Source: Gammaproteobacteria bacterium
Lineage (GTDB): Bacteria; Pseudomonadota; Gammaproteobacteria; JAJPIJ01
NCBI GenBank assembly: GCA_046347035.1
Contig: JAXMGY010000001.1
Coordinates: forward strand, 18,485 to 82,484
Direction of reading: 5' to 3'
DNA: 64,000 nucleotides
Made by a program: the position numbers and the translations under genes. Shown piece by piece: positions 4,365-55,816 of this stretch. The notes under the pieces are model-generated. The model had not been told where the DNA came from. It searched no databases and saw only the letters and a program-made list of their open reading frames with translations. Positions within the stretch are counted from its first letter, which is position 1, and every line of letters starts with the position of its first letter.

Positions 4365-4443
4365 CCGTCGTTCCCGCGAAGGCAGGACCCAGTCTAAGAA
4401 GCGTTGTTCTTCAACTGGATTACCGCTTGCGCGGGAATGACGA
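4365..4443 (-). repeat. MITE-like palindromic intergenic repeat, family copy A (reverse orientation)
   Basis: Reverse complement reads GTCATTCCCGCGCAAGCGGtAATCCAGTT..ACTGGGTCCtGCCTTCGCGGGaACGACG. Same architecture as seven other copies in the window. Confidence 0.75.
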
Positions 4444-4481: not shown

Positions 4482-5599
4482 TTAGTGCCGCAGTGCTTCG
4501 GCCGCTGGCGTGTAATGACGTTTCAGTGCCTTCGCCACCGCTTGATGCGTAATCAAGCCATTGTGCACATTCAAACCATTGCAAAGATGCGGATCCTCGG
4601 CACAGGCGCGGCGATAACCTTTGTTCGCCAGCGCAATCGCAAATGGTAGTGTCGCGTTGTTGAGTGCAAAGGTTGAAGTGCGCGCCACGGCGCCGGGCAT
4701 ATTCGCCACACAGTAGTGCACAATGCCATCCACCACGTAAGTCGGATCAGCGTGCGTGGTCGCCTTGCTGGTTTCGAAGCAGCCGCCCTGGTCGATCGAT
4801 ATATCCACCAACACCGAGCCCGGTCGCATCTTCTTCAGCATCGGTCGCGTCACCAGTTTGGTGCCGCGGCGCCGGGGACCAACACTGCGCCAATGACCAA
4901 ATCCGCACTGACAACCTGTCGCTCAATGGTGTCGACGGTCGCATAAGCGGTATACAGCTTCGAGCCGAATTGCTCATCAAGTTGCTTTAAGCGATCAAGC
5001 GAAAGATCCACCACCGTCACATGCGCTTCCAGGCCCATGGCCATGCGTGCAGCATTGGTGCCGGCAACACCACCACCGAGCACGACCACTTTCGCGGGCG
5101 GTACGCCAGGAACGCCGCCGAGCAAAATGCCGGATCCACCGCGTTCTTTTTCCAAACAATGCGCACCGACTTGGATTGACATGCGACCCGCCACTTCGCT
5201 CATCGGCGACAACAACGGCAGCGTGCCACGTGGGCTAGTCACCGTCTCATAGGCAATGGCGGTGCAGCCGGATTTCATTAACGCCGACGCCTGTTTTGGA
5301 TCTGGCGCCAGATGCAGATAAGTGAAAAGCAGTTGCCCCTTGCGCAGCATGCGGCATTCGCCTGGCTGCGGCTCTTTTACCTTGACGATCATCTCCGCCT
5401 TGCGGAAGACTTCGGCGGCATTGGCGGCGATGCGTGCCCCGGCGGCGCGGTAGTCGCGATCAACGAAGCCGATGCCAAGTCCTGCGCCGGTCTGAATCAG
5501 AACGCGATGGCCATGATGAATCAACTCCCGCACGCTGGCGGGCACTAGGCCAACGCGGTATTCGTGGGTTTTTATCTCTTTTGGTACGCCGATGAGCAT
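4482..5599 (-). pseudogene. ald: Alanine dehydrogenase, split by a frameshift near 4850
   Basis: ORF 4850..5599 has the N-terminal Rossmann motif '[14 protein letters not shown]'. ORF 4482..4853 has the C-terminal Ald region. Combined length about 372 aa. Confidence 0.8.
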
Positions 5600-5681: not shown

Positions 5682-5756
5682 GTCATTCCCGCGCAGGCGG
5701 GATTCCAGTTCAATATGAACTCATTTTGAATCGGTAGCCGCTTACGCCGCGACGAC
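5682..5756 (+). repeat. MITE-like palindromic repeat, copy B (degenerate 3' hairpin)
   Basis: GTCATTCCCGCGCAGGCGGGATTCCAGTT followed by an AT-rich spacer and a degenerate second arm ending GCGACGAC. Confidence 0.65.
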
Positions 5757-10760: not shown

Positions 10761-10853
10761 TAGATCAATGCTACATGTAAGGCATAGAGGTTAACTTGCT
10801 CCTCTCGCCGAGTCTGAATGACGGAGCAGAAATCGGTACTAGCGCGCAATGCC

Positions 10854-10930
10854 GTCATTCCCGCGCAAGCGGGAATCCAGTTAAAGATGAATTTATTTTT
10901 AACTGGGTCCCCGCCTGCGCGGGGACGACG
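10854..10930 (+). repeat. MITE-like palindromic repeat, copy C
   Basis: GTCATTCCCGCGCAAGCGGGAATCCAGTTaaagatgaatttatttttAACTGGGTCCCCGCCTGCGCGGGGACGAC. Confidence 0.8.
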
Positions 10931-11099
10931 GCTTGTCTTTGTTTGCATTAAATGACTCGCTGGGAGTGATAGCTATCTTCATGGCCGTTCCCTCTCCCCT
11001 CGCGGCAGAGGGTCAGGGTGAGAGGGAATGTTGGCACCAACGCCGACTATTCCCTTGCGTCTCCTGCCGTGTGCGAGAAATAGAGAATAAGGAGGATGC

Positions 11100-13886: not shown

Positions 13887-15299
13887 ATGATTACCAAAGA
13901 CATGCTGATCAACGGTCGGATGCAGGCCGGCACGGGAGGTGACTACGATGTGCTCAATCCCGCCACGGGCAAGTCACTGATCAAGGTCCCACAGGCAGGT
14001 GCCGAGCAGATCGACGCGGCGGTCGCCGGCGCGCAGGGCGCGTTTGACGCCTGGTCGCGCACTACGCCGCAGGAGCGCTCGTTGATTCTGTTGAAGTTGG
14101 CCGATCGCATCGAAAGTAACGCTGAGGTTTTTGCCAAGCTCGAATCGCAAAACTGCGGCAAGCCCTACGCACGCGTGCTGGTCGATGAAATGCCGGCCAT
14201 CGTCGATGTGTTTCGTTACTTTGCCGGCGCCGTGCGTTGCATGACCGGCAGTGCCGCTGATGAATATATCTCCGGCTTCACCAGCATGATCCGCCGCGAT
14301 CCCGTGGGCGTGGTGGCTTCGATCGCGCCATGGAATTATCCATTGATGATGGCGGCATGGAAAATTGCGCCCGCCATCGCCGCCGGTAACACCATTGTGC
14401 TGAAGCCGTCCGAGCAAACACCGCTGACAACTTTGAAGCTTGCCGAGATCGCCGCGGAGTTTCTGCCGCCTGGAGTGCTCAACATCGTCACCGGCGTGGG
14501 CGATCCGGTGGGCACCACGCTCATCAATCATCCCGGCGTGAAGATGATTTCACTGACTGGCAGCATCGCCACTGGCCATAAGGTGCTCGAAGCCGCCTCA
14601 CGCAGCATCAAGCGCACGCATCTGGAATTGGGTGGCAAGGCACCGGTGATTGTCTTTGACGATGCTGACATCAACGAGGTGGTGCAGGGGATTAAAGTGT
14701 TTGGCTACTACAATGCCGGCCAGGATTGCACAGCCGCCTGCCGCATCTACGCCGAAGCGCGCATCTATGAAAAATTGGTGGCCGATCTGGGTGCCGCCGT
14801 CAGCGACATTAAATATGGACAGCCGGAAGACGATGCGTCGGAAATCGGGCCGTTGATCAGCGCGCGGCAACGCGATCGCGTTGCCGGCTTTGTCGATCGC
14901 GCGCGCACCAAGAAGCACATCGAAGTAGTCGCCGGTGGCAATCCTGGGGAAGGCGCGGTTTTTTCTATCAACCCACACTCGTCGCCGGTGCGCATCAGGA
15001 TGATGAAATCGTGCGCCAGGAAGTGTTCGGCCCGGTGGTATCGGTAACGCGTTTTGCCGATGTGGATCAGGCGGTCGCTCTGGGCGAATGACTCGAATAC
15101 GGCTTGGCTTCCTCGGTGTGGAGTCAGGAATATCAGTCGCGCCATGCAGGTGGCTTCACGGCTGCAATATGGATGCACGTGGATCAATACGCACTTCATG
15201 CTGTGTTCGAAAATGCCGCATGGTGGCTTCAAACAATCCGGCTATGGCAAGGATCTTTCCATGTACGCGCTGGAAGACTACACCACGTGCGCCATGTGA
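13887..15299 (+). pseudogene. patD: Gamma-aminobutyraldehyde dehydrogenase (PatD/YdcW family); the 3' third is disrupted by about three frameshifts
   Basis: ORF 13887..15047 carries the ALDH core ('PWNYPLMMAAWK', 'ELGGKAP'). Shifted frames downstream still read 'GFFYQPTLVAG...EVFGPVVSVTRF' and 'PHGGFKQSGYGKDLSMYALEDYT'. Confidence 0.75.
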
Positions 15300-15309: not shown

Positions 15310-15882
15310 TTGACTACGGTAACGGCGCCGAACCTCAATACGCTGCCGGCGGATCTGCCGGTACCGAAGGATGATGGTGCCGCGGATCACTTGGTTGGTT
15401 TGTCATTGCCTGCTGTATCGCTGCCGGCAACCACCGGTCCGGCTATCAATCCGGCCACACTGCGTGGCATCGCTGTCATCTACTGCTATCCGATGACGGG
15501 CCGGCCCAACGTGCCCTTGCCGGAGGGTTGGGATGCCATACCCGGCGCGCGCGGCTGCACGCCGCAGTCCTGCGCCTTTCGCGATCACTATTCGGAACTG
15601 CAGCAGTTGGGCGCGAAGGTGTTTGGCGTCAGCACACAGAGCACCGACTACCAACGCGAGGCCGCCGAGAGACTGCACCTGCCGTTCGCGTTGCTCAGCG
15701 ATGTGGATTTGAATTTTGCGAATGCATTGCGATTGCCAGCATTTCAAGTCGATGGTATGCAGTTGATCAAGCGGCTGACTTTGATTGCCCGCGACGCGTC
15801 AATCGTCAAAGTGTTCTATCCGGTATTTCCATCGGATCGGAATGCCGGAGATGTCGTCCAGTGGTTGAAGTCACATGCATGA
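15310..15882 (+). CDS. Peroxiredoxin (AhpC/TSA-Bcp-like)
   Basis: 'GCTPQSCAFRD' peroxidatic-Cys context and 'KVFGVSTQS'. The upstream part of track ORF 15088..15882 is read-through of the patD tail. Start proposed at TTG 15310, just after the patD stop. Confidence 0.6.
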   Translation: MTTVTAPNLNTLPADLPVPKDDGAADHLVGLSLPAVSLPATTGPAINPATLRGIAVIYCYPMTGRPNVPLPEGWDAIPGARGCTPQSCAFRDHYSELQQLGAKVFGVSTQSTDYQREAAERLHLPFALLSDVDLNFANALRLPAFQVDGMQLIKRLTLIARDASIVKVFYPVFPSDRNAGDVVQWLKSHA

Positions 15883-16505
15883 TCGGCTCAACGCCAAACA
15901 GATTCCGCGCGGCAGGCATCAGGATCGCTACCTAAGTTTCGAGGAACTTGCTGCGGTCGAACGCGAGGATATCGACTACCGCATCGTGGTGCGCGAAGTG
16001 CCAGGTGCGTCGCATGCTGTTATCACACCGCATGGCGGCGGCATCGAGCGCGGCACCACGCAAATCGCGCGCGCCATCGCTGGCGACACGCATCATCTCT
16101 ATCTGTTTGAAGGGTTGAAACCGCGCGGCAATCTCAATGCACTCCACATCACCAGCCGCCGCTTCGATGAGCCCCGTTGCCTTGAATTAGTTGCGCGCAG
16201 CGAGACTGTCATCAGTGTGCATGGTTGCGGGTCTGGATGAGCGGGTGTACATTGGTGGTTTGCACGAAGAGCTGAAGTTGGCTGTCGCGAGTGCATTGGA
16301 AGGAATTGGTGTTGAAGCGTGTCTTGACGATCACGCATTCCCAGCTATCAACTCTGACAACATATGCAATCGCGGCGTAAGCGGACGCGGCGTGCAACTG
16401 GAATTCACAACGGGTATTCGGCGGCTGATGAAATCGCCGCTCATCGGTACGGCGATCAGAGATGTTCTAGCCAACACAATAAATCCAAGTATTCAAATAG
16501 GTTAG
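15875..16505 (+). pseudogene. Poly-gamma-glutamate hydrolase family protein (YjqB/UPF0714-like), frameshift near 16235
   Basis: ORFs 15875..16240 and 16191..16505 tile one protein ('VITPHGGGIERGT', 'SVHGC'). Confidence 0.5.
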
Positions 16506-17569: not shown

Positions 17570-20500
17570 ATGAAAAAGGTGTCTTGGACGATATGGGCTG
17601 TCGTTGTAGTTGTGGTGACACTGGCATTTGAAAAAGCAGGGGCGACCCCAGTACCGGAAAATGGACTGTCAGATCTCATTACAGCCTTGCAGCTAACAGA
17701 ACCGGTCGTCGCGACGACTAAATCAACCGACCAAGACCGAGCCGAAATCGAACGTCTCATCGAGCGCACCGCTTCGATGTCTCGTGCGGAGAAAGCTGAA
17801 GCGATTGCCGAGTTTATCGATCATCACCCCCACTCGCCTTTTCGAGTTGCACTCGAAGCTAATCTGGGCTTTCAGTACCTGCATGACGGATATGTTTCCA
17901 GGGCGATCACGTCGCTCAGCGCTGCCTGGGAGCACGGGCGAGAGGCGCGCGGATTAGCCATTGAAGCGCTTGTAGACAAAGCTGTTGGTGACCTGCTTGT
18001 CACCCACGCACGTCTGGGGCACAGCAATGAGACCGAACGTTTACTGACTGAGATTTCCGGGCGACCCATCATGGGTAGCGCAGATGTCGCAGTCAGCACC
18101 GCTCGGGACGGCCTGTGGCAAATCCAACATGAACCGGAACAGGCACTGCGCTGTGGGGCTATGGCATTGAACGCACTGCTGCAGTCGCGGCACAGCGACG
18201 CGGCTCTGCGATCCGAATTGATGAACATCGCGGTCGATAAACAAGGCATGAGCCTCGCGCAGATTGCTAAACTGGCTGAGCACCACGGCGTTACCTTGAA
18301 AGCGGTCAGGTCCCTGCAACGCGATGCTGTTGTACCGGTGCCCGCGATTGTGCATTGGAATGTGGGCCACTACGCGGCGGTGCTTGCGAAAAACGGCAAG
18401 GAATATCTAGTCGATGACCCGGTATTCGGCGGACGTAAATGGATTTCGTCGGATGCACTGCAAGCAGAGACAAGCGGACACTTCCTTGTTCTTGCCGATG
18501 CGCCGGCTACAGATTGGGCCGAGCTTGCGACAAAAGAGGCTGCAAACATTCGTGGTGCGGGATACACAAACACCGACGATCCTCTCTACACCCGCCCGCA
18601 GGATCACAAGGAGTGCGACCAACCTTGCGGCAGCAGCAACCCTCCTGGGGGAATGCCGGTCCCTGCTGTGCACTCGATGCTGGTGAGCCTGAACATTGTC
18701 GACCGACCCGTGAGTTACACCCCGCCCAAGGGGACCGACGTCGACGTGGTGCTGACCTACAACCAGAAAGAATCAGACCTTCAACCAGCCGTATTCACGT
18801 ACTCAAACTTTGGTCCCAAATGGAACTTCAACTGGCTAAGTTTCATACAGGATGACCCAAACTCGCCCGGCAACAGTGTTATGCGTTACGTCGCTGGTGG
18901 TGGTGGGCAACGTTATTCCGGCTTCAATTCGTCGACGGGTGCCTTTACACCCGAGAAGCGCAGCGGCGCCCAGTTGGTGAAGACGGCTGCGAATACCTAC
19001 GAATTGAGGGATGCCGACGGTTCTAAGGAAGTGTTCGGATTTTCCGACGGAAGCACGGGTTATCCTCGCAAGATATTCATGACACAACGTGTTGACGCAG
19101 CCGGTAATGCCGTGACGCTGCAGTACGATGCACAACGTCGCCTCACCGGAATCGTCGATGCCATCGGGCAGACCACGACACTGCAATACACCCACACCAA
19201 TCCGTTACTGATAACAGCGATAACCGATCCTTTTGGTCGAAAAGCGACTGTTACGTACGATACGTCGGGAAGGCTGTCTTCGATCAAGGACGCGATCAAT
19301 CTAACGTCCTCGTTTACCTACGATACAGGTACATTCATCACCGCGATGACTACCCCGTACGGAACCACCCAATTCGCTTACGGGGAGGGAGATAACCGCC
19401 AGCGATGGCTTGAGATCACCGATGCGCTCGGTAAGAAGTCGCGCGTCGAGTTCCGGCACAACGCACCATATCCCGCTTTTGATCAGACGCCACCGACAAA
19501 CGACTTTCGAACCACGTGGTTTCACTCACGGAATACCTACTATTGGGATCAAACCGCGATGGCATTAGCGCCAGGTGACTATACCAAGGCCCGCATCAAG
19601 CACTGGGTGCATCGAGGAGACAAAGACAGCGAAACCGACGGTGTTCTTGAGTCGGTAAAATATCCACTCGAAAACCAGATTTGGTACAAGTACCCTGGTC
19701 AAGGTGACACAGCCTTCAGTGGCAGCTTTGACAAACCAATTCTGATTGCGCAGACGCAACCTGACGGCACGGCAAAACTGGAGAGATATGAATACAACCA
19801 GTTCGGCAAAGTGACCCGCTACATCAACCCACTCGGCCACGAGTACGTCTACGAATATGACACTAACCAAATCGATTTGCTGCGGATCAAGCGACGCAGG
19901 GTAAGCACTGACACGCTCGATACCTTTGCGCAATACACTTACAACACGCAGCACCGCGTTCTCACATATACCGATGCTGCAGGCGGTATCACGAGATATA
20001 CGTACAACACCGCTGGGCAGCTTCTCTCTCAGATCACGCCGGCAAACGAGACGACCAGTTACGCTTATGACGCCAAGGGCTATCTCACCAGCATCACCAA
20101 TCCCCGCGCGCAGACAGCGGTAACCTATACATACGATGCCGTCGGCCGCGTCAACAAGCGCACTGATTCGCAAGGATCTATCCAATATGCCTATGACAAT
20201 TTGGATCGGCTGACGACAACGACATACAGCGACACGACGACGGAAACGAACACATACGACAAGCTGGACGTGAGCGTTGCAAAAGATCGCAACGGAAAGC
20301 TTACCCGCTATGCATACGATGCGGTTCGCAATCTCGTCTCAGTCACCGATCCGCTTAATCAGGTGGTGCAATACACCTACTTCGAGAACCGTTTACCCAA
20401 GACAGTTAAGGATGCACGCAATAATGTGACAAGCTGGACGCGTGATATTCAGGGGCGAGTACTCAGCGAAAGCAGTCCTGATCGCGGCGCTACCACATAT

Positions 20501-22378
20501 ACATACGATGTGGTCGGCAATCTCGCAACGACGACGGACGCAAGAGGAAACACCACAACCTATACTAGGGACAAACTCAGACGTCTCACCAAAGAGCTGT
20601 ACAGCAATGGCGAAACGTCAGATTTTGCTTACGACGGCACAGTCAACGGCGAGCTAGGGACTCTTACGAACGCAACCAAGGTCGGTCCGTTCAAGTATGA
20701 TAGCCGCGGTTGGTTGGTTGAGCAGGGCGGTGGTAGTACGCAAACCGAAACCGTCTCCGTCGTTGGAGTAATCTTAATTGCTGGGCGACCTTTCCTGACT
20801 CGAGTCCCGCAGGTGGTTGTAGCGACACCTCCACGCACATTGTACAGCTACACATCCGCTGGACGGTTAGCATCAATCACGTATCCGTCTGGCAAAGTTG
20901 TTACTTACAACTACAGCGGTGGAATGGTATCCGACGTGTCAGTCAATGGAACCACAATTCTAAGTAATGTTACCCATACTCCCATGGAGCCCATCACGGG
21001 TTGGACGTGGGGTAACGGTACGGTGCACCCGAGAACGCTTGATGCGGACTATCATGTGAGAAGTTACAAGATTGGATCAGCCACACGAGACCTCACCTAT
21101 GATTCCGAAGGGAATCTACTCATCGTTGTCGATAGCGCGACGTCCAGTCTTGGTCCCACCTATACAAACGCAGATGATTTGGGCAGGGTGATCAGTGAAA
21201 CGAATCTTGCCAAGAACCTGGCTTGGACGTACGACTCAAATGGCAATCGAATTTCAACACGAATTGGACTTGGAAATACGCCCTACAGCCTTACGTACAG
21301 CGGTTCGAGCAACCGCTTGCTCTCGCTCTCTGGTCCCACAGCACGTACCTTTACGTATGATGCGGCGGGCAATATTACTTCAAACGGAAGCTTGATATAT
21401 CAGTATAGCGCACGTGGCAGATTAGCCGCGGTGAATCCACAGGCGCTTACCAGTTGGTCTAACTATCGGTACAACGCACTGGGCCAGCTGCGTGCCCGCG
21501 ATATGGACGCGGATACGAATCGTCGATTTGCCTACGACCCGGCCGGTCACCTGCTTGGTGAGTATTCGTCTTTGAGTGGTGGCTTCAGCCAGGAGACGGT
21601 ATGGCTAGGCGACATCCCGGTGGCGGTGCTGTCGGGCACCAACACCATTCAGTACATCCACGCCGACCATCTGAACACGCCGCGGGCGCTCACGGACACG
21701 ACGGGCAAGGTGCTGTGGCGCTGGGACTCCAACGCTTTTGGCGAGGGATTGCCGAATGAGGATGTGGACGGCGACGGGGTGAAGGTGACCTACAACCTGC
21801 GCTTCCCTGGTCAGTACTACGACAAGGTCACGGGCAAGCACTACAATTACTTCCGCGACTACGATCCGGAAACCGGGCGCTACCTGGAGTCCGATCCGAT
21901 TGGACTCGCGGGGGGCTTGAATACTTACGCCTATGTCGGTGCGAATCCGCTGACTAGATTTGATCCGTTTGGGTTGGCTTGGAACTGTACTTATGTTCAA
22001 TCAACCGGCCGGTTGTATTGCGTCGACGATGAAACCGGGAAATCTGTTTATGAGCGCTGCTATTCCGGCTCAGAGAGTCGAGGTGGGAAAAACGATCCCG
22101 ATAAGGAATCAGAGAGAAGAACCGGACCGATACCCCGTGGAGGTTGGGACATAGGCGGCTATGATAACTCCAAAGGCCCCCGAACCATCGACCTCTCTCC
22201 CAGATCGGGTACGGAAACATACGGTCGTGATCTGTTCCGAATACACGGTGACAGTCGCAGGCACCCTGGCAACGCGTCGGAAGGGTGTATTATCTGCGAC
22301 CTTTTAACACGTGAAAAGCTAACCAATGGATCAGGCGGTACTGTAACTGTCATCCGCGCAGAACCATTTGCAAACTAG
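17570..22378 (+). CDS. RHS-repeat polymorphic toxin with Sec signal peptide, C39-like peptidase domain, YD/RHS repeats, RHS core (ending ...DPIGLAGGLNTYAYVGANPLTRFDPFGL) and a C-terminal L,D-transpeptidase-like toxin tip
   Basis: Intact 1602-aa ORF. Signal peptide 'MKKVSWTIWAVVVVVVTLAFEKAGA'. C39-like motifs 'ALRCGAMALNALL' (Cys195) and 'VHWNVGHYAAVL' (His267). Many YD-type repeats ('YTYD', 'YAYD', 'TYTYD'). Core 'RFPGQYYDKVTGKHYNYFRDYDPETGRYLESDPIGL'. Tip motif 'RIHGDSRRHPGNASEGCII'. Confidence 0.9.
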   Translation: MKKVSWTIWAVVVVVVTLAFEKAGATPVPENGLSDLITALQLTEPVVATTKSTDQDRAEIERLIERTASMSRAEKAEAIAEFIDHHPHSPFRVALEANLGFQYLHDGYVSRAITSLSAAWEHGREARGLAIEALVDKAVGDLLVTHARLGHSNETERLLTEISGRPIMGSADVAVSTARDGLWQIQHEPEQALRCGAMALNALLQSRHSDAALRSELMNIAVDKQGMSLAQIAKLAEHHGVTLKAVRSLQRDAVVPVPAIVHWNVGHYAAVLAKNGKEYLVDDPVFGGRKWISSDALQAETSGHFLVLADAPATDWAELATKEAANIRGAGYTNTDDPLYTRPQDHKECDQPCGSSNPPGGMPVPAVHSMLVSLNIVDRPVSYTPPKGTDVDVVLTYNQKESDLQPAVFTYSNFGPKWNFNWLSFIQDDPNSPGNSVMRYVAGGGGQRYSGFNSSTGAFTPEKRSGAQLVKTAANTYELRDADGSKEVFGFSDGSTGYPRKIFMTQRVDAAGNAVTLQYDAQRRLTGIVDAIGQTTTLQYTHTNPLLITAITDPFGRKATVTYDTSGRLSSIKDAINLTSSFTYDTGTFITAMTTPYGTTQFAYGEGDNRQRWLEITDALGKKSRVEFRHNAPYPAFDQTPPTNDFRTTWFHSRNTYYWDQTAMALAPGDYTKARIKHWVHRGDKDSETDGVLESVKYPLENQIWYKYPGQGDTAFSGSFDKPILIAQTQPDGTAKLERYEYNQFGKVTRYINPLGHEYVYEYDTNQIDLLRIKRRRVSTDTLDTFAQYTYNTQHRVLTYTDAAGGITRYTYNTAGQLLSQITPANETTSYAYDAKGYLTSITNPRAQTAVTYTYDAVGRVNKRTDSQGSIQYAYDNLDRLTTTTYSDTTTETNTYDKLDVSVAKDRNGKLTRYAYDAVRNLVSVTDPLNQVVQYTYFENRLPKTVKDARNNVTSWTRDIQGRVLSESSPDRGATTYTYDVVGNLATTTDARGNTTTYTRDKLRRLTKELYSNGETSDFAYDGTVNGELGTLTNATKVGPFKYDSRGWLVEQGGGSTQTETVSVVGVILIAGRPFLTRVPQVVVATPPRTLYSYTSAGRLASITYPSGKVVTYNYSGGMVSDVSVNGTTILSNVTHTPMEPITGWTWGNGTVHPRTLDADYHVRSYKIGSATRDLTYDSEGNLLIVVDSATSSLGPTYTNADDLGRVISETNLAKNLAWTYDSNGNRISTRIGLGNTPYSLTYSGSSNRLLSLSGPTARTFTYDAAGNITSNGSLIYQYSARGRLAAVNPQALTSWSNYRYNALGQLRARDMDADTNRRFAYDPAGHLLGEYSSLSGGFSQETVWLGDIPVAVLSGTNTIQYIHADHLNTPRALTDTTGKVLWRWDSNAFGEGLPNEDVDGDGVKVTYNLRFPGQYYDKVTGKHYNYFRDYDPETGRYLESDPIGLAGGLNTYAYVGANPLTRFDPFGLAWNCTYVQSTGRLYCVDDETGKSVYERCYSGSESRGGKNDPDKESERRTGPIPRGGWDIGGYDNSKGPRTIDLSPRSGTETYGRDLFRIHGDSRRHPGNASEGCIICDLLTREKLTNGSGGTVTVIRAEPFAN

Positions 22379-23060
22379 AGAGCATGCAGCTATGCGTTCC
22401 GAGATAAGACAAGCCAAAATCTTTCGTTTGTTTTTGGTGATATGTTGTTTCTGTTGTTGGCCGTTGACTCGCTGCTTGGCGAGCAGCAGCCAGATTGCGT
22501 TACCTGAATATGTCGATGACATATTTGGGTGGCACGCTGGTACGACAACATTAACTAATGTGCAAGGACTGATGGGGCAGTCACCATTTCATGTTCGCGG
22601 AGATGCTGCGTCGTCAGAAACATTCATTTGTTATGTCATCAGAGACACCAACCAGTCTTGGATAGTCACGTTTACGTCTGACAATGAACTTGCAGACGTG
22701 TCGTCTCACGAATTAACCGGAATTGAGCTGACTCGTCTCGATGCAGGGTTGCATGCTAGCAACGATTGCACGGTCGCACTGGATAATCGTGACGTAATGA
22801 CCCTTGTAAGGATGAGTGAGACTGATTTTATGGCGAAGTTTTCTCCACCGGTTGTTCATAAAGGCGAATACGGCGGCTCTATCTGCGTCGAAAATCCAAT
22901 TGATCGGAAAGATCCTGCATACCAGTACTGGCGGGGGAAGAAGAACTGTTTCCCGGAGGGGAAGGAACCATATGTCAATGTGTGCACGACATGGGGCGCG
23001 CAGTTTCGAGATAAAGTTCTCACGAAGTTGACGGTGAAAAGGGTTTCTAGTGTGTGTTAA
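22368..23060 (+). CDS. Putative periplasmic immunity protein cognate to the RHS toxin tip
   Basis: Overlaps the RHS stop, suggesting translational coupling. Signal peptide 'IFRLFLVICCFCCWPLTRCLASS'. Alternative start Met at 22392. No known family. Its position directly after the toxin tip follows the usual RHS toxin/immunity arrangement. Confidence 0.55.
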   Translation: MQTREHAAMRSEIRQAKIFRLFLVICCFCCWPLTRCLASSSQIALPEYVDDIFGWHAGTTTLTNVQGLMGQSPFHVRGDAASSETFICYVIRDTNQSWIVTFTSDNELADVSSHELTGIELTRLDAGLHASNDCTVALDNRDVMTLVRMSETDFMAKFSPPVVHKGEYGGSICVENPIDRKDPAYQYWRGKKNCFPEGKEPYVNVCTTWGAQFRDKVLTKLTVKRVSSVC

Positions 23061-23099: not shown

Positions 23100-23320
23100 C
23101 GAGGACGTAGGGCGGACGGCATCAATACATATACGTACAATGGCCGTGGCCGGCTCTACACGGCACAAGATATTTCGATCACGCCCCGTGGGTTAGACGG
23201 TTGGTCGTACTATCGCTACGACGGATTAGGTCTGATGTCGGGGCGCGATATTAACGGAGAGAGCCGACGCTTTACTTACGACCCGGCCGGACATTTGCTT
23301 GCTGAGGCAGGAAATAGGGG
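23100..23320 (+). pseudogene. Degenerate RHS fragment (displaced cassette remnant), truncated at the junction element
   Basis: Reads 'NTYTYNGRGRLYTAQDISITPRGLDGWSYYRYDGLG...RRFTYDPAGHLLAEAGN'. Parallel to the start of the next cassette but stops at 23311. Confidence 0.5.
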
Positions 23321-23378
23321 TCGGAGTGAATTAATTTGGTGCATGGAAACGGTCGCGCCAATTCAAACACTTCGATCC
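23311..23378 (+). repeat. Conserved ~70-bp junction element, copy 1, at an RHS cassette boundary
   Basis: GAAATAGGGGTCGGAGTGAATTAATTTGGTGCA..GCGCCAATTCAAACACTTCGATCCC. About 80% identical to 24966..25036. Contains an imperfect hairpin (GAATTaatTTGG / CCAATTC). Confidence 0.6.
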
Positions 23379-24235
23379 CGTTACTCTTCGCTGTACAGGG
23401 CAACGCATTCAATCCGCGTGGTTTGGATGGGTGGGTGTACTATCGTTACGACGGATTGGGGCGCATGCGTGGACGAGATGTTAATGGAGAGGTAAACCGA
23501 CGCTTTGCCTACGATCCGGCCGGACATCTGCTCGCTGATGCAGGCCAGGAGACGGTGTGGCTGGGCGACATTCCGGTGGCGGTGCTGTCGGGCACCAACA
23601 CCATCCAGTACGTCCACGCCGACTATCTGAATACGCCGCGTGTGATCACGGACATGACGGGCAAGGTGCTGTGGCGGTGGGACTCCAACGCTTTTGGAGA
23701 GGGATTGCCGAACGAGGATGTGGACGGCGATGGCGTGAAGGTGACCTACAACCTGCGCTTTCCTGGGCAGTACTACGACAAGGTTACCGGCAAGCACTAC
23801 AATTACTTCCGCGACTACGATCCGGAAACCGGGCGCTACCTGGAGTCCGATCCGATTGGGTTGGCGGGCGGCATTAACACATATGCGTATGTGGGCGGCA
23901 ATCCACTGGCATTCATAGATCCAACCGGTGAAATAAGGATCCCCAGGAAATGGCTAGAGTGTTTAGTATTGCTGGGCTGCTTGCATGGGAAGCCAGAAGA
24001 ACCTGGTTCTACCCGTCCGGTTCGGCCTGAAGTTCCGACACAAGTTAAGCCGCCTGTGCCCGTATCCGGCTCAAAAGATCCCGATAAGGACGACTGCGAA
24101 TCGCCGGATAGTGAGCCGGCACCTAAAACGACTCCGACACCGATGACCCCCATATCTGAGCCGTCCGTTCCTTGGTGGTTGCCGCTGATACCACTAATAC
24201 CGTTCCCTGGGAATCCGATTTATGGTGGACTCTGA
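23336..24235 (+). CDS. Orphan RHS C-terminal cassette: RHS core with an alternative, Pro-rich C-terminal tip; no RHS body
   Basis: A 315-bp segment (23545..23859) is about 93% identical to RHS 21589..21903. Core 'DPIGLAGGINTYAYVGGNPLAFIDPTGE', then the novel tip '...KDPDKDDCESPDSEPAPKTTPTPMTPISEPSVPWWLPLIPLIPFPGNPIYGGL'. The apparent TTG start lies inside the junction element. Confidence 0.6.
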   Translation: MVHGNGRANSNTSIPLLFAVQGNAFNPRGLDGWVYYRYDGLGRMRGRDVNGEVNRRFAYDPAGHLLADAGQETVWLGDIPVAVLSGTNTIQYVHADYLNTPRVITDMTGKVLWRWDSNAFGEGLPNEDVDGDGVKVTYNLRFPGQYYDKVTGKHYNYFRDYDPETGRYLESDPIGLAGGINTYAYVGGNPLAFIDPTGEIRIPRKWLECLVLLGCLHGKPEEPGSTRPVRPEVPTQVKPPVPVSGSKDPDKDDCESPDSEPAPKTTPTPMTPISEPSVPWWLPLIPLIPFPGNPIYGGL

Positions 24236-24292
24236 CCGTTCAGCGACACGTGGAGGATGCCTTGGGTACGAAAGAGATTCTGGGAGGTAGCT

Positions 24293-24886
24293 ATGAATAT
24301 CCGTTTACGAGCCGAAAGTGACGACAAGTATTTGGGGGATATTTCCGATGCGCTAAAACTGCAGGATCGTGATCCTGTGCGAGTATTTCAGGAACTCCTG
24401 CGCCTTGCTCAGAATGGCTCGATAAACAGCATGCTTGAGCTGGGCTGGGCTTATAAGAAAGGATTGGGAACAAAAACGGACACTGATGAGGCAGCCAGGT
24501 GGTTTCGACGAGCATATGACGGTGGGGCTACACAGGCAGCTCTGTATCTTGGAGGCATTTATTGGCGCATGGAGAAGTATGCGGATGCCCGTGATATATT
24601 TGCTAAAGGCGGCGAAGACGGAGATCCAGTGTGTCTCTATTGGCTTGGGCGAATGTATCAGGACGGCATTGCTGTCGAGAAAGCTCCCGACAAAGCCTAC
24701 GACCTATACGTGCAGGCCTCAGCAGGCGGTAGTTTGATCGCAAGAGCTGCTGCTGCGCGACTTCTAATGTCCGGGAGGTGTGGTGCCTCGCGTATTCTCG
24801 TTGGAGTGTACCAGTACGTCATAACGATGTTTTCTGCACTAGTATCATGCTTCCGAAAGGAGACCAATCACAGCCTTAGGCATTAA
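24293..24886 (+). CDS. Sel1/TPR-like repeat protein, putative immunity protein for the orphan cassette
   Basis: Sel1-like repeats ('LGWAYKKGLGTKTDTDEAARWFRRAYDGG', 'LGRMYQDGIAVEKAPDKAYDLY'). GGGAGG RBS 6 nt before the ATG at 24293. Sits directly 3' of the toxin tip. Confidence 0.55.
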   Translation: MNIRLRAESDDKYLGDISDALKLQDRDPVRVFQELLRLAQNGSINSMLELGWAYKKGLGTKTDTDEAARWFRRAYDGGATQAALYLGGIYWRMEKYADARDIFAKGGEDGDPVCLYWLGRMYQDGIAVEKAPDKAYDLYVQASAGGSLIARAAAARLLMSGRCGASRILVGVYQYVITMFSALVSCFRKETNHSLRH

Positions 24887-24929
24887 CGCAAATTGAAAAT
24901 GGGTCGTTGTTGTTTATCTTTCCGCCGCC

Positions 24930-25036
24930 CGCACGTACACATACGATGCGGCCGGCAACATCACAGGAATAAGGTGTCGGAGTGAATTACTTTGGTGCAC
25001 GCGAAGCGGTAGCGCCAATTCGATTTACTTCGACCC
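24930..25036 (+). repeat. Third RHS remnant ('RTYTYDAAGNITGIR') fused to junction element copy 2 (24966..25036)
   Basis: GGAATAAGGTGTCGGAGTGAATTACTTTGGTGCA..GCGCCAATTCGATTTACTTCGACCCC. The YD-repeat remnant compares with 'TFTYDAAGNITSNGS' at RHS ~21340. Confidence 0.55.
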
Positions 25037-25331
25037 CATCTCCTCGGTGTCACGTGCTATCGTTGCCATCATGACCGCGGTCAAGCAAGCCGAACTGGCT
25101 GGGTTCGATATAGGTCTGATTGATGAGAGCAAGCGTTGTTCCTACGAGCAACGCGCGCTTCAACATCAAGAAGCGCTGAGTCTGGCGTTAGAACTTGAGA
25201 GAGTGGGGCAGCAGCTGCGTAATGGATCTCAACCGACTGCTGTTACGCCTGAGCGAAGCTGAGGTGAGTTAACGGGTTGGATGAATTTGCTTTGTCGAAT
25301 GTCACTTTTCGCCTTGCTGCTTCAACATCCG

Positions 25332-29470: not shown

Positions 29471-29546
29471 GTCATTCCCACGTACGCGGGAATCCAGTGA
29501 AAAGCGAATTATCTATTGCTGGGTCGCCGCTTTCGCGGGGACGACG
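29471..29546 (+). repeat. MITE-like palindromic repeat, copy E
   Basis: GTCATTCCCACGTACGCGGGAATCCAGTGaaaagcgaattatctattgCTGGGTCGCCGCTTTCGCGGGGACGACG. Confidence 0.75.
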
Positions 29547-29609: not shown

Positions 29610-32508
29610 CTAGAGTGCGTGTGCCTCGAGGCCCAGGTCGCGATGCTTATCAAACGTCTCGCGATTGACGATGACTGCCGTGCTCGCCGTCTCAGGGCGT
29701 AGGTATTCGCGGCCAATACGTTGCAGATCAGCGATGGTGGTTGATAACACGCGACTGCGGAATTGCCGCCGGAATTCCGGTGTACGTCCATGCAGGGTCT
29801 GGAAGTAAGCCTGGATCGCCTCACCCGATGGTGAGCTCGGCTGATCGATGCTTTGAATGATGCCAAGCACCGCTTCCTCAAGTTCGCGATCCACGTGCGC
29901 GCCTTGTAACCATTCAAGCGCGGCGTCGAAATCCTTCAACGTGCCTTCCAGGCGCGGATCGCGATAAGAGAAGAAACGGAAGCTTCCCGAATCGGAGTCG
30001 TAACGCGCGCCGCTGCCGTAGGCGCCGCCTTGCTCGCGGATGGCGCGATGTAGGTAACCATTGTGCAGGAACTTGCCAAGCACGCTGAATACGGGCGCGT
30101 CAGGATGACTGGCGGGAACCGCGGCATAGGCCTTGGCGCAGAAATTGACCTGCGTGTTGGTGATCCAGGCGTCATGCACACGTTGTGTCGCAGACGTCCA
30201 GCCAAACGTGGATTCGGAACGGTTCGCGCTGTTTCGCGCCAGTGTGGCAGACAGACTTTGCTCCAGCGCGGCATGCTCGCTTTCCTGACTGACGACCAAC
30301 AGCCGTGACGGTTGTTGTGCCATCTTCTCGCGCATGGTCCGCAGTTGTTCTGCAAAATGCTTGCAGCTTGACCTGATCGTTTAATGCAGCGTCGAGCCGC
30401 TTGAGATTGGCGATGGACAGCGGCCCGTCCCAAAGGTTGTCGAGCTGACCGACAGTGCCCATGCCCGCGGCGGCGGCCAGCATGGCCAAGGAATGGCCAC
30501 GATCAGTAATGGACGATTCCTGTGCCGCGCGCAATTGCGCGATCACCTCGCGCAACCGCTGTGGCTCGTCGAAATGAACTGTCTGGATGGTATCAACCAT
30601 CAACTGCGCCAATGCGCGTTGATCACGCGCCAGCGACTTGCCTGCCAAGGCGAGATAGCCGCTTACCGTGCCAGTATCGGCAATGCTGGCGCGCAGCGTG
30701 GCATTGGCAGCGAGACTGCCGAGGCGCGCCTGCAACGCCTGGGTATCAAGGTAGCTGCGCCCGCCACTACCCACTTCAGTGAGCAACGTGTAAAACAACA
30801 CCAGATGTTCAGTTTCTTCGCGCGTCAGCGCCGGCAAGTCGGCTACCCATTGCGCATAGATCAAACCGTTAGTGCCTGCGCTATACCAACTGACGGGATG
30901 CTCGTTGATGCGGCTATTGCGCGCGAGTGGAATGCGCAGATCCTTGGGCACATCGGCGATACCGACCTTCGGCAGCAGATCAGGATTGTTACCATGCCGT
31001 TGCCTGTCATCGAGGGTGCGTGCCTGCTCGAGAACCTTCGCTCGCCGTGCTTTGTCCATTTCCTTGGCGATGGCATCTAACTGCTTACGTTCTTCAATCT
31101 CACGGCGCTTGGCAAGTTCGGTATCCGGACTCATCACCAGCCGCACGCGATGTGGATTGTCCAGCAGGCGGCGCACTTGGCGTTTGATGAATTCGGGATC
31201 TTGAATTTCAAGGCGCAATTCGGCGATGGCGGCGTCAATGTCGAGGAATGCAAACGGATCGCCGCCGTGCGTCGTGGCGCCCAACACGCGGGTGAGCAAT
31301 TGCAAGCCGTGCGGGAAGTGTCCACCGCCGAGTTCGCGTTGCGCGATTTCCAATTGCGTGAGCACGGCCTCCAGTGTTTCAACCGGAACACCGTCGCGCG
31401 CAATTGTTTCCAGGACGTCGAAAACGAGACGCTCCACCGCATCGGCATGTTCGCTTCTGCTGCCCTCAAGACCGCAAATGAACATGGCTTCGCGCGCCGA
31501 GTCATCCAGCCCACAGAGTTCCAGCGGTGCGGTGCCGAGATCGGTGGTCTCCAAGGCTTGCCGCAGTGGCGAGCCGCTGTGCTGCAGCAATACATTTGTC
31601 AGCAATAGATCATGGAGGTGATGACGCGCATCGCCGGTATGACCCAGCAACCAACCGATCGCAATGTAAGTCGCGTTGGTATCTTCACCGCCTTCATGAG
31701 TGTATGAACTCTCGACGCGCAGAGGCGTACCGTAGCGGCGCTCGTCATGCAGATGCAGATCCAGAGTTCGCCGATCAAAATGCCTTAACGCCCAATCCTC
31801 AAACCTCGCCTGGTGGTCGCGTACGGGAAAATCACCATAGGTCATGAACGTGGCGTTCGATGGATGGTAATGGCTGCGATGAAACGACTGCAATTGCTCG
31901 TAGCTCAACGCTGGAATCCTGGCCGGATCGCCGCCGCTGTTGAAGTGGTATGTGGTGGTCGGAAACAGCAGGGCCTGCAATTGCATTTGCACCTGTGCAA
32001 TCGGTGAACTCATCGCTCCCTTCATCTCGTTGTAGACGACGCCGCGATAGACCAGCGGTGTCGATACATCCTGCGGATTGGCAAATTCGATGCGATGTCC
32101 TTCCTGCGCAAAATCCAGTTGATCGAGTTTGGGAAAGAAGACCGCGTCCAGATAAACACCTAACAGATTTTCGAAGTCCTTGCGATTCTGAGTCGCGAAC
32201 GGATATGCCGTGGCATCGCTGCTGGTGAAAGCGTTCATGAAAGTATTGAGTGAACGCCGCAACATCATGAAGAACGGATCGCGCACCGGATATTTCCTAC
32301 TGCCGCATAGCACGGTGTGTTCGAGAATATGTGCAACGCCGGTGTCGTCCATAGGCACGGTGGGGAAGGCCACCATGAAGCAATTGTTGCTGTCCTCCGC
32401 GACCAGATGATAATGCGTGGCGCCGGTTTTGAAGTGCCGATACTGTTGCATCTCCACGTTCAAGGTGTCGATACGCTGGGTTCTGACCAATTCGAAAGTC
32501 GAAGCCAT
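29610..32508 (-). pseudogene. M16-family zinc metallopeptidase (pitrilysin/PreP-like, ~965 aa); frameshift near 30330-30400
   Basis: The 778-aa ORF 30172..32508 has the inverted zinc motif 'HILEHTVLCGS'. ORF 29610..30335 supplies the C-terminal M16C region. The tail of the 778-aa ORF is out-of-frame garbage. Confidence 0.8.
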
Positions 32509-38119: not shown

Positions 38120-38200
38120 GTCATTCCCGCGTACGTGGGAATCTGGGTCAAATTGAAATCTCATTCATAACTGGATCGCCGCTTTCACGGGGACAACGGG
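38120..38200 (+). repeat. MITE-like palindromic repeat, copy F
   Basis: GTCATTCCCGCGTACGTGGGAATCTGGGTcaaattgaaatctcattcatAACTGGATCGCCGCTTTCACGGGGACAACGG. Confidence 0.7.
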
Positions 38201-53990: not shown

Positions 53991-54130
53991 GTCATTCCCG
54001 CGGAAGCGGGAATCCAGTCAAAAACTTATTTTTACTGGTCCCCGCTTTCGCGGGGACGACGGAAATAGCTCTATTTGAGCCAATGCGGTCGTTGCGAAGT
54101 GGCACCTATTTGCAGTCTTCTATTTAGTCA
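53991..54130 (+). repeat. MITE-like palindromic repeat, copy G, plus ~70-bp 3' extension module
   Basis: GTCATTCCCGCGGAAGCGGGAATCCAGTcaaaaacttatttttACTGGTCCCCGCTTTCGCGGGGACGACGG, then AAATAGCTCTATTTGAGCCAATGCGGTCGTTGCGAAGTGGCACCTATTTGCAGT, which is shared with copy H. Confidence 0.8.
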
Positions 54131-54566
54131 TTACTTCGCTTCCACGTTCCTTCCCCTGCATCGCGGGGGAAGGTTAGGATGGAGGTAATTCAATTCTTGC
54201 TCGAGCCAATGAGCTCGGTGCATGGATTCATGCACTGAGCAATTCATTTCACTTCTTCTCCTAGACCGTCCGGCATCAGTCCCATCGATAGGCTGTTACC
54301 AAGGTCGGAATCGGCCACGAGCCGCCAGTCGCACCTTCCCGAAAGCAGACATTGCAACGCGGCAAAGCGGACATTGATGCTTGTCCGAATTGTGGTTTAA
54401 TTTAGTACTGTATAAAACCTGAACCAAGGAGCGGGTTCTTATGCGATTTCAGCCCCTTATCCTCGATTCGTTGTCCGATGTTATCGGATAACGCGCCATG
54501 TTATACGACATTTTCGTTTCTTCTATATCGAGTTAGGCATTTGCCATAACAGGGGAACTACAAGTA

Positions 54567-55097
54567 ATGAACTCGATTTTCTTGCTATTGATTGTCGTCG
54601 TCGCAGTGGTTGTGATATTAGCTGCTGTTAAAGCCAATTCAAAAGGTGGCGTCGGAGATCAAATTTGGCCGTTCTACGCCAAGAAACCCCTTTCACAGCC
54701 AGAACAGGTGCTGTATTTCCGTCTTATCCAAGCATTACCTGACCATATCGTTCTCGCTCAAGTGCAGCTCTCAAGATTGCTTGGTGTCAAGAAAGGCAAT
54801 AACTATCAGGCTTGGTTTAACCGCATCAATCGCATGAGCGCTGACTTTGTAGTGTGCAAAAAAGATTCAAGCGTTGTTGCTGTCATCGAACTTGATGACG
54901 CCACTCATCAAAAAGAAGACCGGCAGGCCGCAGACGCAAAGAAAGACAAAGCTCTGTCCTCTGCTGATATTCGTGTCGTGCGCTGGCAAGCCAAGTCAAT
55001 TCCTGATATTGCTGCAATTCAGGCTGCGTTTATGCCTAACACTGCGGTCAACAGGGGCGCCCCAAAAGCTGCGCTTTCGGGGCGCCCGTTACCTTGA
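54567..55097 (+). CDS. DUF2726-domain protein with N-terminal TM anchor (restriction-endonuclease-like fold family)
   Basis: N-terminal TM 'IFLLLIVVVAVVVILAAV'. Core 'QPEQVLYFRLIQALPDHIVLAQVQL...MSADFVVCKKDSSVVAVIELDDATH' matches the DUF2726 pattern. Lies in a low-GC islet. Confidence 0.55.
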   Translation: MNSIFLLLIVVVAVVVILAAVKANSKGGVGDQIWPFYAKKPLSQPEQVLYFRLIQALPDHIVLAQVQLSRLLGVKKGNNYQAWFNRINRMSADFVVCKKDSSVVAVIELDDATHQKEDRQAADAKKDKALSSADIRVVRWQAKSIPDIAAIQAAFMPNTAVNRGAPKAALSGRPLP

Positions 55098-55116
55098 ACG
55101 TTAGACGCATGCAACA

Positions 55117-55554
55117 ATGCCTCAGTACTTCTGCCAAGAATGTGCGCGAATCAAATGCCTGTTACCCGAAATTGTCGGCTCTCGCTTCACGGATAACCAA
55201 TATCAGCTCGATAAGTATATTAAGCACACCGCGCCGACAAGCTTGTGTGGATACAAAACTGTATTTAAAGATCCGTCCACGGCCACGTACTCAAACTATA
55301 TTATTTCTACGCTGGCGGACGGTTATGTTGAAGTCGACGACAGAAATCGAATAAACGTAAATTATTTTGCGTCAGCGACCGCTGGATACGCGATATCCAT
55401 GGGTCACGTGGAAGGTCCAGTCTTTGGAGTCAAAGTCGTACTTGGAAATGAGCCAGATAGGATTCACGCTTATCCAATAGATGTGAGCAATATCGAAGTG
55501 ATTCGATGCCAACAGTGTGACAAGGAAATTATCCATGACAAACCATCCGCGTAA
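55117..55554 (+). CDS. Hypothetical protein with terminal CxxC pairs (split zinc ribbon)
   Basis: 'FCQEC' at the N-terminus and 'RCQQCDKE' at the C-terminus. AT-rich codon usage unlike its neighbours. No family recognised. Confidence 0.35.
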   Translation: MPQYFCQECARIKCLLPEIVGSRFTDNQYQLDKYIKHTAPTSLCGYKTVFKDPSTATYSNYIISTLADGYVEVDDRNRINVNYFASATAGYAISMGHVEGPVFGVKVVLGNEPDRIHAYPIDVSNIEVIRCQQCDKEIIHDKPSA

Positions 55555-55816
55555 CAAGCAGCTTATGCGGAACTGCGGGATTAGGTGCCTTTTTGCGCGT
55601 GTTGCTTCGTGCAACAGCTGCTCCACCCAAGGGCTGCTTAGCTAGTAGTTGAACGACCGCTTTGGAGAAATCTAGGCAACGCCCCGGTGCGTCTACTTCG
55701 GGTCGCACTCAATCATTGAACATGGTACGGTGGCAGCAGAAGCTATAGGAGAGCAAAAGGGAAAGGACGACAAGCGTAGCCGTAAGCAGTTTCTTACGTA
55801 ACTGAAGAAGTCCACT

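Follow-up and report, generated by a model that had tools for sequence, protein, structure and literature searches.

Two repeats at RHS breakpoints in a gammaproteobacterial rhs array are very probably decayed REPINs of a RAYT-linked family

We analysed a 64 kb stretch of gammaproteobacterial DNA (the window), which carries an rhs array. The protein encoded by the main rhs gene has, by Pfam, a Peptidase_C39-like N-terminal region, RHS repeats (RHS_repeat, RHS) and a Tlde1-like C-terminal domain (Tlde1_dom), and the gene is followed by a presumed immunity ORF (Table 1). RHS stub A begins 51 nt past the stop codon of this ORF and shares 81% nucleotide identity with the overlapping 5′ part of the next RHS fragment, orphan B. 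The C-terminal domain of orphan B (~100 aa) has no Pfam match, and the NCBI annotation starts this protein at GTG 23435 (266 aa, MFO1434848.1). A gene for a Sel1-repeat protein and RHS stub C complete the series, in which the stubs and orphan B map to residues 1258-1468 of the main Rhs. The GC content of the rhs island is 52-55%, versus 55-59% in its flanks.

The layout is that of an Rhs orphan array, with a main rhs gene, a core ending in DPxGL, a toxin tip with immunity gene, and then orphans made of partial core, toxin and immunity gene together with core stubs; such arrays are expected to arise from paired homologous and illegitimate recombination during C-terminal displacement (PMC8125069). 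Exact-protein look-ups for strain variants, using the main Rhs, two genes near the window ends and P0122, returned no record. A look-up of the Sel1 gene returned only a 2 kb Logan contig (L015), identical to the window and with the same gene call. Setting aside the source record, the best-scoring matches to orphan B were no closer than 54-61% identity.

Two direct copies of a ~70-base repeat lie within this array, with best limits from a covariance model (below) that differ slightly from those first annotated. A 24-nt core, GTCGGAGTGAATTA[A/C]TTTGGTGCA, occurs exactly twice in the 64 kb, at 23320 and 24976, against a chance expectation of 0.00 (100 shuffles). The first-pass annotation had described two copies of about 70 bp and about 80% identity that mark where RHS fragments break off. 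We found both copies, with 84% ungapped and 77% gapped identity over ~88 nt, and RHS homology does end at the left edge of each. Stub A ends ...HLLAEAG (...GCAGG) at 23311, against the leader of copy 1, and stub C ends ...AAGNIT at 24965, followed by GG and the leader of copy 2. The trailing residues that had been read as the ends of the RHS fragments, 'N' and 'GIR', are instead encoded by the A-rich leader.

Table 1. Features of the rhs array and of the two repeat copies in the window.
Feature	Position	Strand	Remarks
Main rhs gene	17570..22378	+	1602 aa; reference for the stubs
Presumed immunity ORF after main rhs	22368..23060	+	No Pfam family
RHS stub A	23112..23311	+	Main Rhs residues 1271-1331 (tblastn); Pfam RHS_repeat
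Copy 1 (very probable REPIN)	23312..23383	+	51.3 bits, E 7e-11, model positions 1-62 of 62
Copy 1 leader	23312-23316	+	AAATA
Copy 1 left arm	23317-23342	+	1 mismatch to the 26-nt family consensus
Stop/SD/start string in copy 1 left arm	23323..23341	+	Read directly from the sequence
Parts of the string	GGAG 23323-23326; TGA 23327-23329; TTG 23336-23338; GTG 23339-23341	+	
Copy 1 loop	23343-23354	+	
Copy 1 right arm	23355-23379	+	Degenerate; short trailer after it
Copy 1 right flank	23380-23395	+	GTTACTCTTCGCTGTA
Orphan B	23384..24235	+	3′ part of the RHS core, from about main residue 1283, including DPIGLAGG; Pfam RHS
Sel1-repeat protein	24293..24886	+	Presumed immunity gene of orphan B; Pfam Sel1, 47.9 bits
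RHS stub C	24927..24965	+	ARTYTYDAAGNIT; main residues 1258-1270, 12/13 identical (tblastn)
Copy 2 (very probable REPIN)	24968..25041	+	46.3 bits, E 1e-9, full model length
Copy 2 leader	24968-24972	+	AATAA
Copy 2 left arm	24973-24998	+	2 mismatches (mismatch scan)
Copy 2 loop	24999-25011	+	
Copy 2 right arm	25012-25037	+	7 mismatches (mismatch scan)
Copy 2 right flank	25038..25054	+	CATCTCCTCGGTGTCAC; resembles the copy 1 right flank

Next, we explored the repeat in other genomes. A scan of a genome collection found its unit, a 26-nt sequence (GGGGTCGGAGTGAATTATTTTGGTGC) with ~5 A-rich bases as a leader, in 14 stretches of uncultured gammaproteobacterial MAGs, often several times per contig and on both strands, with 8 units within 8 kb in one case (L010). 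These units mostly form inverted doublets, or hairpins, with spacers of 2-60 nt at the 3′ ends of housekeeping genes. The elements adjoin complete genes, lying between them or at their ends, and come after AcrB, glucokinase, LysR, RecG and similar genes. They usually lie immediately at the 3′ end of the ORF upstream, whose stop codon they often overwrite; in other genomes, at least 9 genes end on the TGA of the unit. No RHS homology was found near the element in other genomes, and none of 80 other rhs loci (570 kb) contains it. The element is thus not specific to rhs, and the suggestion that it is a signal for rhs/cdi cassette boundaries does not hold.

These occurrences also bear on whether the repeats are diverged RHS coding sequence that merely resembles a repeat. 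The reading frame of either stub stays open across the element (GRSEL[I/L]WC), and a weak tblastn alignment reaches into the copy 1 right arm. However, the element fails to align at the place expected on the main Rhs, and the same sequence is found in many genomes in non-RHS contexts. Those occurrences and the match to a model built from foreign doublets (below) refute this explanation, to which we assign a negligible probability. The first-pass annotation would have discarded its own proposal had the element been confined to this locus and made of RHS codons, and it is neither.

Consensus doublets comprise an A-run, a GC-rich stem and a T-run, and the flanks across 40 units are the A-rich leader and its complement. 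No direct repeats that would represent a target-site duplication flank any of the 40 units, and nothing is conserved as a target motif to the left of the leader. CAGG lies to the left of both window copies, and TCACAGGAAT gives a 10-nt match to one flank in L010. We saw no convincing internal stem in the 26-nt unit, which lacks the palindromic core of a REP; TGAATTCA is present in only some unit variants and the pairing runs between two units. The consensus doublet had no match in a plasmid collection, while viral contigs gave one uninformative half-unit inside other sequence. Rfam had no match in or around the element, and none at the gathering threshold in the window as a whole, which also contains no tRNA gene. 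A tblastx comparison of the window to the REPIN-bearing loci revealed no common neighbourhood.

In six loci (L005, L006, L010, L097-099, L100-101 and L102, the last three reached via RAYT homologues), inward-facing units flank a gene of 225-235 aa for a Y1/HUH transposase of the probable REP-associated (RAYT) type. Against Pfam Y1_Tnp (cut-off 23), the genes of L005 and L010 reach 35.6 and 41.9 bits. Their best and sole NCBIfam match is REP_Tyr_transpos, at 59.9 and 56.9 bits, below the equivalog cut-off of 80. Some homologues bear the JGI name 'REP-associated tyrosine transposase' and an HVH motif is visible in the RAYT sequence, for which there was no PDB sequence match. The transposase gene is single in every locus examined, between housekeeping genes and at a different site in each lineage, and most RAYT homologue clusters lie on a single contig, all of these being MAG contig fragments. 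The family is linked to a RAYT in these other genomes.

Two inverted 26-nt termini that start with GGGG, and that flank a transposase-like gene in six loci, also resemble the terminal inverted repeats of a classical DDE transposon, of which the window copies would be a MITE or an end scar. Against this, the units were never found to enclose any gene but the IS200-like Y1/HUH one, which is not for a DDE transposase, no copy has a target-site duplication, the flanks being the leader and its complement, and the plasmid collection was without a match. We consider a DDE origin very unlikely and rejected the MITE on the missing target-site duplication. The first-pass annotation had offered an IS-end scar, which was the right direction in so far as this is mobile-element DNA, very probably a non-autonomous REPIN of a RAYT system with an IS200-like Y1 transposase.

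To place the window copies in this family, we built a covariance model (R1) from 8 foreign doublets only, leaving the window copies out. The R1 search of the window ranked the two copies first and second, and the third-best match has an E-value of 0.2. Both copies align end to end with the foreign doublets. This full-length match identifies them as REPINs with degenerate right arms and enlarged loops. Each has the REPIN plan of a left arm, a loop of 12-13 nt and a right arm in one hairpin. In both right arms, GCGCCAATTC and ACTTCGA replace the GCACCAAAAT and ACTCCGA of the consensus, and these common derived changes indicate that the copies are sisters. Their right flanks are also alike, with 14 of 18 ungapped positions identical in aligned 21-nt flanks, thus the duplicated unit is slightly longer than a canonical REPIN. 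Identity between the copies is 92% in the left arms, 75% in the loops and 84% in the right arms; the better preservation of the left arm hints at constraint, in what are small numbers.

The window holds only these two members of the family, both inside the rhs array, and no RAYT within the 64 kb. Membership in the source genome thus rests on homology and not on a resident system. The commoner REP family of the window is a different one (TCATTCCCGCGNNNGCGGGAATC, 7 units). Overall, we hold with considerable confidence that the window copies are decayed REPINs of the RAYT-linked family, an ordinary kind of element at an unusual site.

The folding of the copies raises a further reading, compatible with a REPIN origin, in which they were co-opted as a structural RNA or DNA element on rhs operon transcripts, acting as an attenuator, a 3′-end stabiliser or an insulator that silences downstream orphans. 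As + strand RNA, the sense of rhs, copy 1 folds at -30.7 kcal/mol (z -4.6) and copy 2 at -34.3 kcal/mol (z -5.1), with 0/200 shuffles as stable in either case. The C-to-T changes in the right arms keep G.U pairs on the + strand only, the + strand outscores the - strand by 8-9 bits, and the consensus doublets, with A-run, GC-rich stem and T-run, are like bidirectional terminators. Co-option of REPINs for attenuation has been proposed (PMC3337134). However, neither window copy has a T-run after its stem, and a strand asymmetry of similar size is also seen in the foreign doublets. A promoter and terminator scan found nothing at either copy, and its totals for the window are not above those of shuffles. 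We regard such co-option as unlikely.

Copy 1 contains a string of stop codon, Shine-Dalgarno sequence and start codons in its left arm, and the same string is present in copy 2 and in the family consensus. This could be seen as a portable translation signal, in which the element gives an SD and a TTG/GTG start so that displaced orphan toxins are expressed, as the first-pass annotation had proposed. GGAG lies 9 nt upstream of TTG 23336, from which an ORF (23336-24235) does start inside copy 1 and run into orphan B, and the in-frame TGA just upstream gives a layout like translational coupling. However, all units carry this string as part of their own sequence, also those that follow housekeeping genes, and it is buried in the stem of the stable hairpin. 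The same frame in copy 2 closes after six codons (TTG GTG CAC GCG AAG CGG TAG), and in the consensus doublet the TTG/GTG frame meets a stop in the right arm. The start codon said to be supplied to the orphan is real as sequence, but the NCBI start lies downstream, at GTG 23435. The idea of an expression signal finds no support here, and we give it only a slim chance.

Another proposal, of a site-specific recombination scar, would make the copies attC-like or dif-like sites that capture rhs toxin/immunity cassettes. The direct copies at 23312 and 24968 do bracket one orphan toxin with its immunity gene, and both are imperfect hairpins with unpaired bases that are superficially attC-like. The RYYYAAC/GTTRRRY core sites are absent from both copies, no integrase or recombinase was found in the neighbouring genes, and the dispersal of the element after unrelated genes elsewhere and its absence from the 80 other rhs arrays also speak against a capture site. 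The attC site was rejected on the missing core sites and linked integrase, and recombination sites in general seem extremely improbable here.

We compared the family to known systems. Its REPIN and RAYT features agree with the published definition, and are shared with the REPINs and RAYTs of P. fluorescens SBW25 (GI-GIII) and the REP/BIME and TnpA-REP of E. coli: inverted doublets form one hairpin with a variable spacer, lie outside genes near gene ends, are flanked by A and T runs, and a Y1/HUH transposase gene lies between inverted copies of the same unit (PMC3337134; PMC5581495). Unlike classical REPs, the 26-nt unit has no clear palindromic core (PMC3337134) and does not carry the GTAG/CGTC tag (PMC3733652). 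The family differs from the SBW25 and E. coli REPINs in two unusual habits, very short spacers (often 2-3 nt) and frequent overlap with the upstream gene, to which the unit gives its TGA stop; the window copies further differ in being degenerate, few and without a RAYT nearby. By sequence, this REPIN/RAYT family of uncultured Gammaproteobacteria is absent from the searchable literature.

The associated enzyme belongs to the Y1_Tnp fold family, as in the IS200/IS605 family (IS608, ISDra2), in which folded single-stranded hairpin ends are recognised and no target-site duplications are made. The left and right subterminal hairpins of IS200/IS605 elements differ from each other, and each element moves as a whole and is present in many copies, whereas here short hairpin elements recur across loci and the transposase gene is single. 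The Correia elements of Neisseria and the enterobacterial ERIC/IRU are short palindromic repeats that are cotranscribed with their neighbours and can alter mRNA ends or expression; Correia elements make a TA target-site duplication and have no associated RAYT. Neither shows sequence similarity to the window element. In the present Rhs orphan array two sister REPINs lie exactly at two stub ends, and we found no report of REP or REPIN elements at rhs orphan junctions in the searchable literature.

How might decayed REPINs have come to these junctions? In each copy, the two inverted 26-nt units form a single long hairpin. From the REPIN/RAYT systems that have been studied, we infer by analogy that REPINs would not be self-mobile, and that a single-copy RAYT would recognise the folded single strand and move them in trans. 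The window copies are old sisters from one diverged ancestor, their left arms almost intact, their right arms and also their loops sharing derived changes. Given the missing RAYT and the different, commoner REP family in the window, both copies were probably imported with the low-GC rhs island, which would have been acquired horizontally from a lineage where the family is resident. As no RAYT lies within the 64 kb, the window copies are most likely inert relics. The only effect that we would predict for them today is that of a stable hairpin, in RNA or in single-stranded DNA, between orphan modules.

The habit of the family of lying against the 3′ ends of ORFs matches the way that RHS coding sequence reaches the left edge of each copy. 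A simple insertion fails to explain the flanks, since to the left of copy 1 RHS ends at residue ~1333 and to the right it restarts at ~1283, while on the right of copy 2 RHS homology is gone within ~15 nt. Two routes to the junctions are the most likely: the element may have inserted into silent orphan DNA, with REPIN-REPIN or RHS-RHS recombination afterwards, or deletions may have stopped at its 5′ edge. A protein search with the stub A read-through ORF for other RHS-REPIN fusions returned only itself.

Two RHS breakpoints that fall exactly on the left edge of the element, both ending ...CAGG, count against this account. They could instead reflect REPINs that actively build rhs orphan arrays, with a RAYT-type HUH enzyme cutting at the REPIN 5′ edge and at look-alike sites in YD repeats. 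At the 5′ boundary of each module there would then be a REPIN, fused to the RHS core near residue 1283, and the stub-REPIN junctions would have arisen either where excised modules closed into circles or through deletions next to the element. This reading would draw on the ~15 nt of right flank common to the copies and on the shared ...CAGG ends of the stubs. We think it distinctly improbable.

Identification of the copies as probable REPINs removes an apparent rhs-specific "junction signal" and puts a known class of element in its place. It also cautions that start codons or ORF fusions made by REPINs should not be taken as biology, and documents a REPIN/RAYT family from uncultured Gammaproteobacteria. 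Should REPINs contribute to the breakage and rejoining of orphan toxin modules, dispersed repeats would have a part, not recognised before, in toxin/immunity gene turnover, and if they actively build the arrays, a REP system would be a driver of toxin-cassette turnover.

Comparison of the two junction repeats confirmed that they are related to each other. The 64-kb window has exactly two occurrences of the core GTCGGAGTGAATTA[A/C]TTTGGTGCA (23320 and 24976, both in direct reading on the + strand), against none expected in shuffled sequence. Over ~88 nt, copy 1 and copy 2 are 84% identical ungapped and 77% gapped (left arms 92%, loops 75%, right arms 84%). The first-pass annotation had placed each copy at the break of an RHS fragment. 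This proved correct with slightly revised boundaries: stub A precedes copy 1 and stub C precedes copy 2. Each copy is an imperfect palindrome in which an A-rich leader precedes a 26-nt left arm (GGGGTCGGAGTGAATTAATTTGGTGC), and this arm is separated by a loop of 12–13 nt from its degenerate reverse complement, the right arm. The + strand RNA folds have energies of -30.7 and -34.3 kcal/mol, with 0 of 200 shuffles equally stable. At the DNA level, folding favours the + strand over the - strand, since C-to-T changes in the right arms leave G·T pairs. No Rfam family matched either copy.

Table. Repeats and RHS fragments located in the window.
Feature	Position	Strand	Remark
REPIN copy 1	23312-23383	+	revised boundaries
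REPIN copy 2	24968-25041	+	revised boundaries
Stub A	23112-23311		matches main Rhs residues 1271-1331
Stub C	24927-24965		matches main Rhs residues 1258-1270, 12/13 identical
TCATTCCCGCGNNNGCGGGAATC palindromic repeat	4366-4442, 5683-5705, 10851-10932, 29472-29494, 38121-38143, 53992-54014, 58312-58399		

A one-pass scan of 185,579 species-representative genomes with a 20-base left-arm pattern identified 14 stretches containing the unit, as we term the 26-nt arm. Five MAGs labelled Gammaproteobacteria account for twelve of these, a MAG labelled Enterobacteriaceae for another, and a Bdellovibrionaceae MAG for the last, which is a partial match only (6 mismatches over the 26-nt unit). The unit recurs on several of the MAG contigs, in both orientations, with 8 units within 8 kb in locus L010, and the usual form is an inverted pair, spaced by 2–60 nt, that makes a near-perfect hairpin. 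A covariance model built from eight foreign doublets only matched the window copies at full length (51.3 and 46.3 bits, E 7e-11 and 1e-9), the best remaining match in the window having an E of 0.2.

In L005 and L010, an inward-facing unit pair brackets ~800 bp coding for a 233–235 aa protein, and a third copy of this gene is present in L006. The protein begins MPRKPRMYLPG or MPRKTRMYLAG, contains an HVH motif, scores above threshold for Pfam Y1_Tnp and has REP_Tyr_transpos as its sole NCBIfam match, under the strict cut-off of that model. There are at least 7,895 homologues at E <= 1e-20; all those with a source name are from Gammaproteobacteria, and some are named REP-associated tyrosine transposase (RAYT) by JGI. 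The contigs of three homologues (67–75% identity) all show the gene lying between inward-facing units of this family, whose sequence co-varies. Units in inverted orientation around a transposase gene are the published defining arrangement of REPINs and RAYTs (PMC3337134; PMC5581495). The window repeat is a new family member of this known class of element, the REPIN, in an unusual location. The 64-kb window contains no RAYT.

The possibility that the element always abuts rhs/cdi cassette boundaries was not borne out. RHS homology was absent near the element in all 14 loci, where the MAG elements follow AcrB, glucokinase, LysR, Orn/DAP decarboxylase, RecG and other ordinary genes, and the unit was absent from 80 metagenomic rhs loci (570 kb) retrieved with the orphan core sequence. 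Units in the MAG loci are placed hard against the upstream coding sequence, and at least nine real genes terminate at the TGA belonging to the unit (GGGGTCGGAGTGA), so that their proteins end in GSE. From our own ORF analysis and independent gene calls, these are AcrB, two glucokinases, LysR, the decarboxylase, an AI-2E transporter, two RAYTs and one further ORF (MAG loci L002, L004, L006, L008 and L014, and L097 and L100, reached via RAYT homologues). Thus, elements of this family do land in, or come to overlap, coding 3′ ends. These shared stops suggest that units insert into gene 3′ ends or overlap them, with selection for an immediately terminating frame, and the RHS codons reaching the left edge of the window copies look like another case of this habit. 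Across 40 units, no target-site duplication was seen, and nothing in the flanks was conserved outside the 5-nt A-rich leader. In L010, ~10 nt beyond a subtilase stop codon, one REPIN has a left flank (4989-4998, - strand) that is the same, base for base, as the 10 nt left of copy 2 (24962-24971, TCACAGGAAT); the match may be coincidental or may point to a subfamily whose 5′ end is longer.

Copy 1 had also been credited with the start codon of the orphan cassette. An ORF starting inside it does exist (23336-24235), but GGAG, TGA and TTG/GTG are built into every unit, all within the stem of the hairpin. The reading frame of copy 2 closes after six codons. In the NCBI annotation of this DNA, the gene (MFO1434848.1, 266 aa) begins at GTG 23435, and promoter-like sites were not in excess across 22.3–25.6 kb.

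We then considered the RHS junctions, numbered on the main Rhs protein (17570-22378). The stubs end at different residues, and therefore the breakpoints lie in different YD repeats, ~61 residues apart. Simple insertion is a misfit for both copies: the left flank of copy 1 ends at ~residue 1333 while its right flank restarts at ~1283, and the RHS similarity of the right flank of copy 2 is gone after ~15 nt. Stub A and orphan B, the displaced RHS cassette following copy 1, therefore overlap by ~150 nt at 81% identity, near the 84% between the two REPINs. The copies have in common CAGG left of the leader and ~11–15 nt on the right (CTCYTCGSTGT), which in copy 1 is the start of the orphan B RHS-derived DNA. 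Thus, the right junction, from REPIN to RHS ~1283, looks inherited by both. On the left, two different RHS breakpoints meet one and the same element edge. Plausibly, REPINs inserted in successive orphans could have recombined with each other, deletions could have had an endpoint at the 5′ edge of the element, or unequal RHS recombination could have duplicated the module within C-terminal displacement, the usual process for rhs orphans (PMC8125069). Sequence searches retrieved no close relatives of the window rhs array. The association of the repeat with rhs truncation points is real, and these three routes are candidate explanations of it. Stub C, copy 2 and a 71-aa ORF (25047-25262, no Pfam match) form a single uninterrupted 122-codon open frame (24897-25262) with no start codon ahead of 25047.

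The main Rhs contains a Peptidase_C39-like region (residues 194–311, 49.4 bits) and a Tlde1-like C-terminal domain under the cut-off (25.6 bits). The ORFs scanned at 9.5–34 kb included no VgrG, PAAR or other T6SS gene that Pfam could recognise; two neighbouring ORFs had no Pfam match. Several neighbouring genes, at 13887-15047, 15875-16240 and 29610-32508, look truncated or frameshifted. Among them, an aldehyde dehydrogenase covers profile positions 7–345 of 461 only, a poly-gamma-glutamate hydrolase 1–99 of 191 only, and two overlapping ORFs share what should be one PreP/M16 peptidase; errors in the MAG assembly may be the cause, or else decay of genes near the island. At 54001-56000 the GC falls to 48%, and this stretch contains no ORF reaching 180 aa, no tRNA gene and no Rfam match.

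The left arms of the window copies are 1–2 of 26 positions off consensus, the right arm of copy 2 has 7 mismatches and that of copy 1 gave no match at <=7 mismatches in an ungapped scan. The right arms have two derived strings in common, GCGCCAATTC and ACTTCGA, and the loops too are homologous; therefore the copies are sisters, not independent arrivals from the consensus pool. A different REP family, (CG)TCATTCCCGCGNNNGCGGGAATC, has 7 units in 64 kb versus 0.01 expected, all between ORFs, with three in inverted-repeat pairs, two of these contiguous hairpin doublets. This family, commoner in the window than the junction repeat, is probably the resident REP/REPIN family of the genome. The GC of the rhs island is lower than that of its surroundings, and we infer that the two REPINs arrived with the island and are now decaying.
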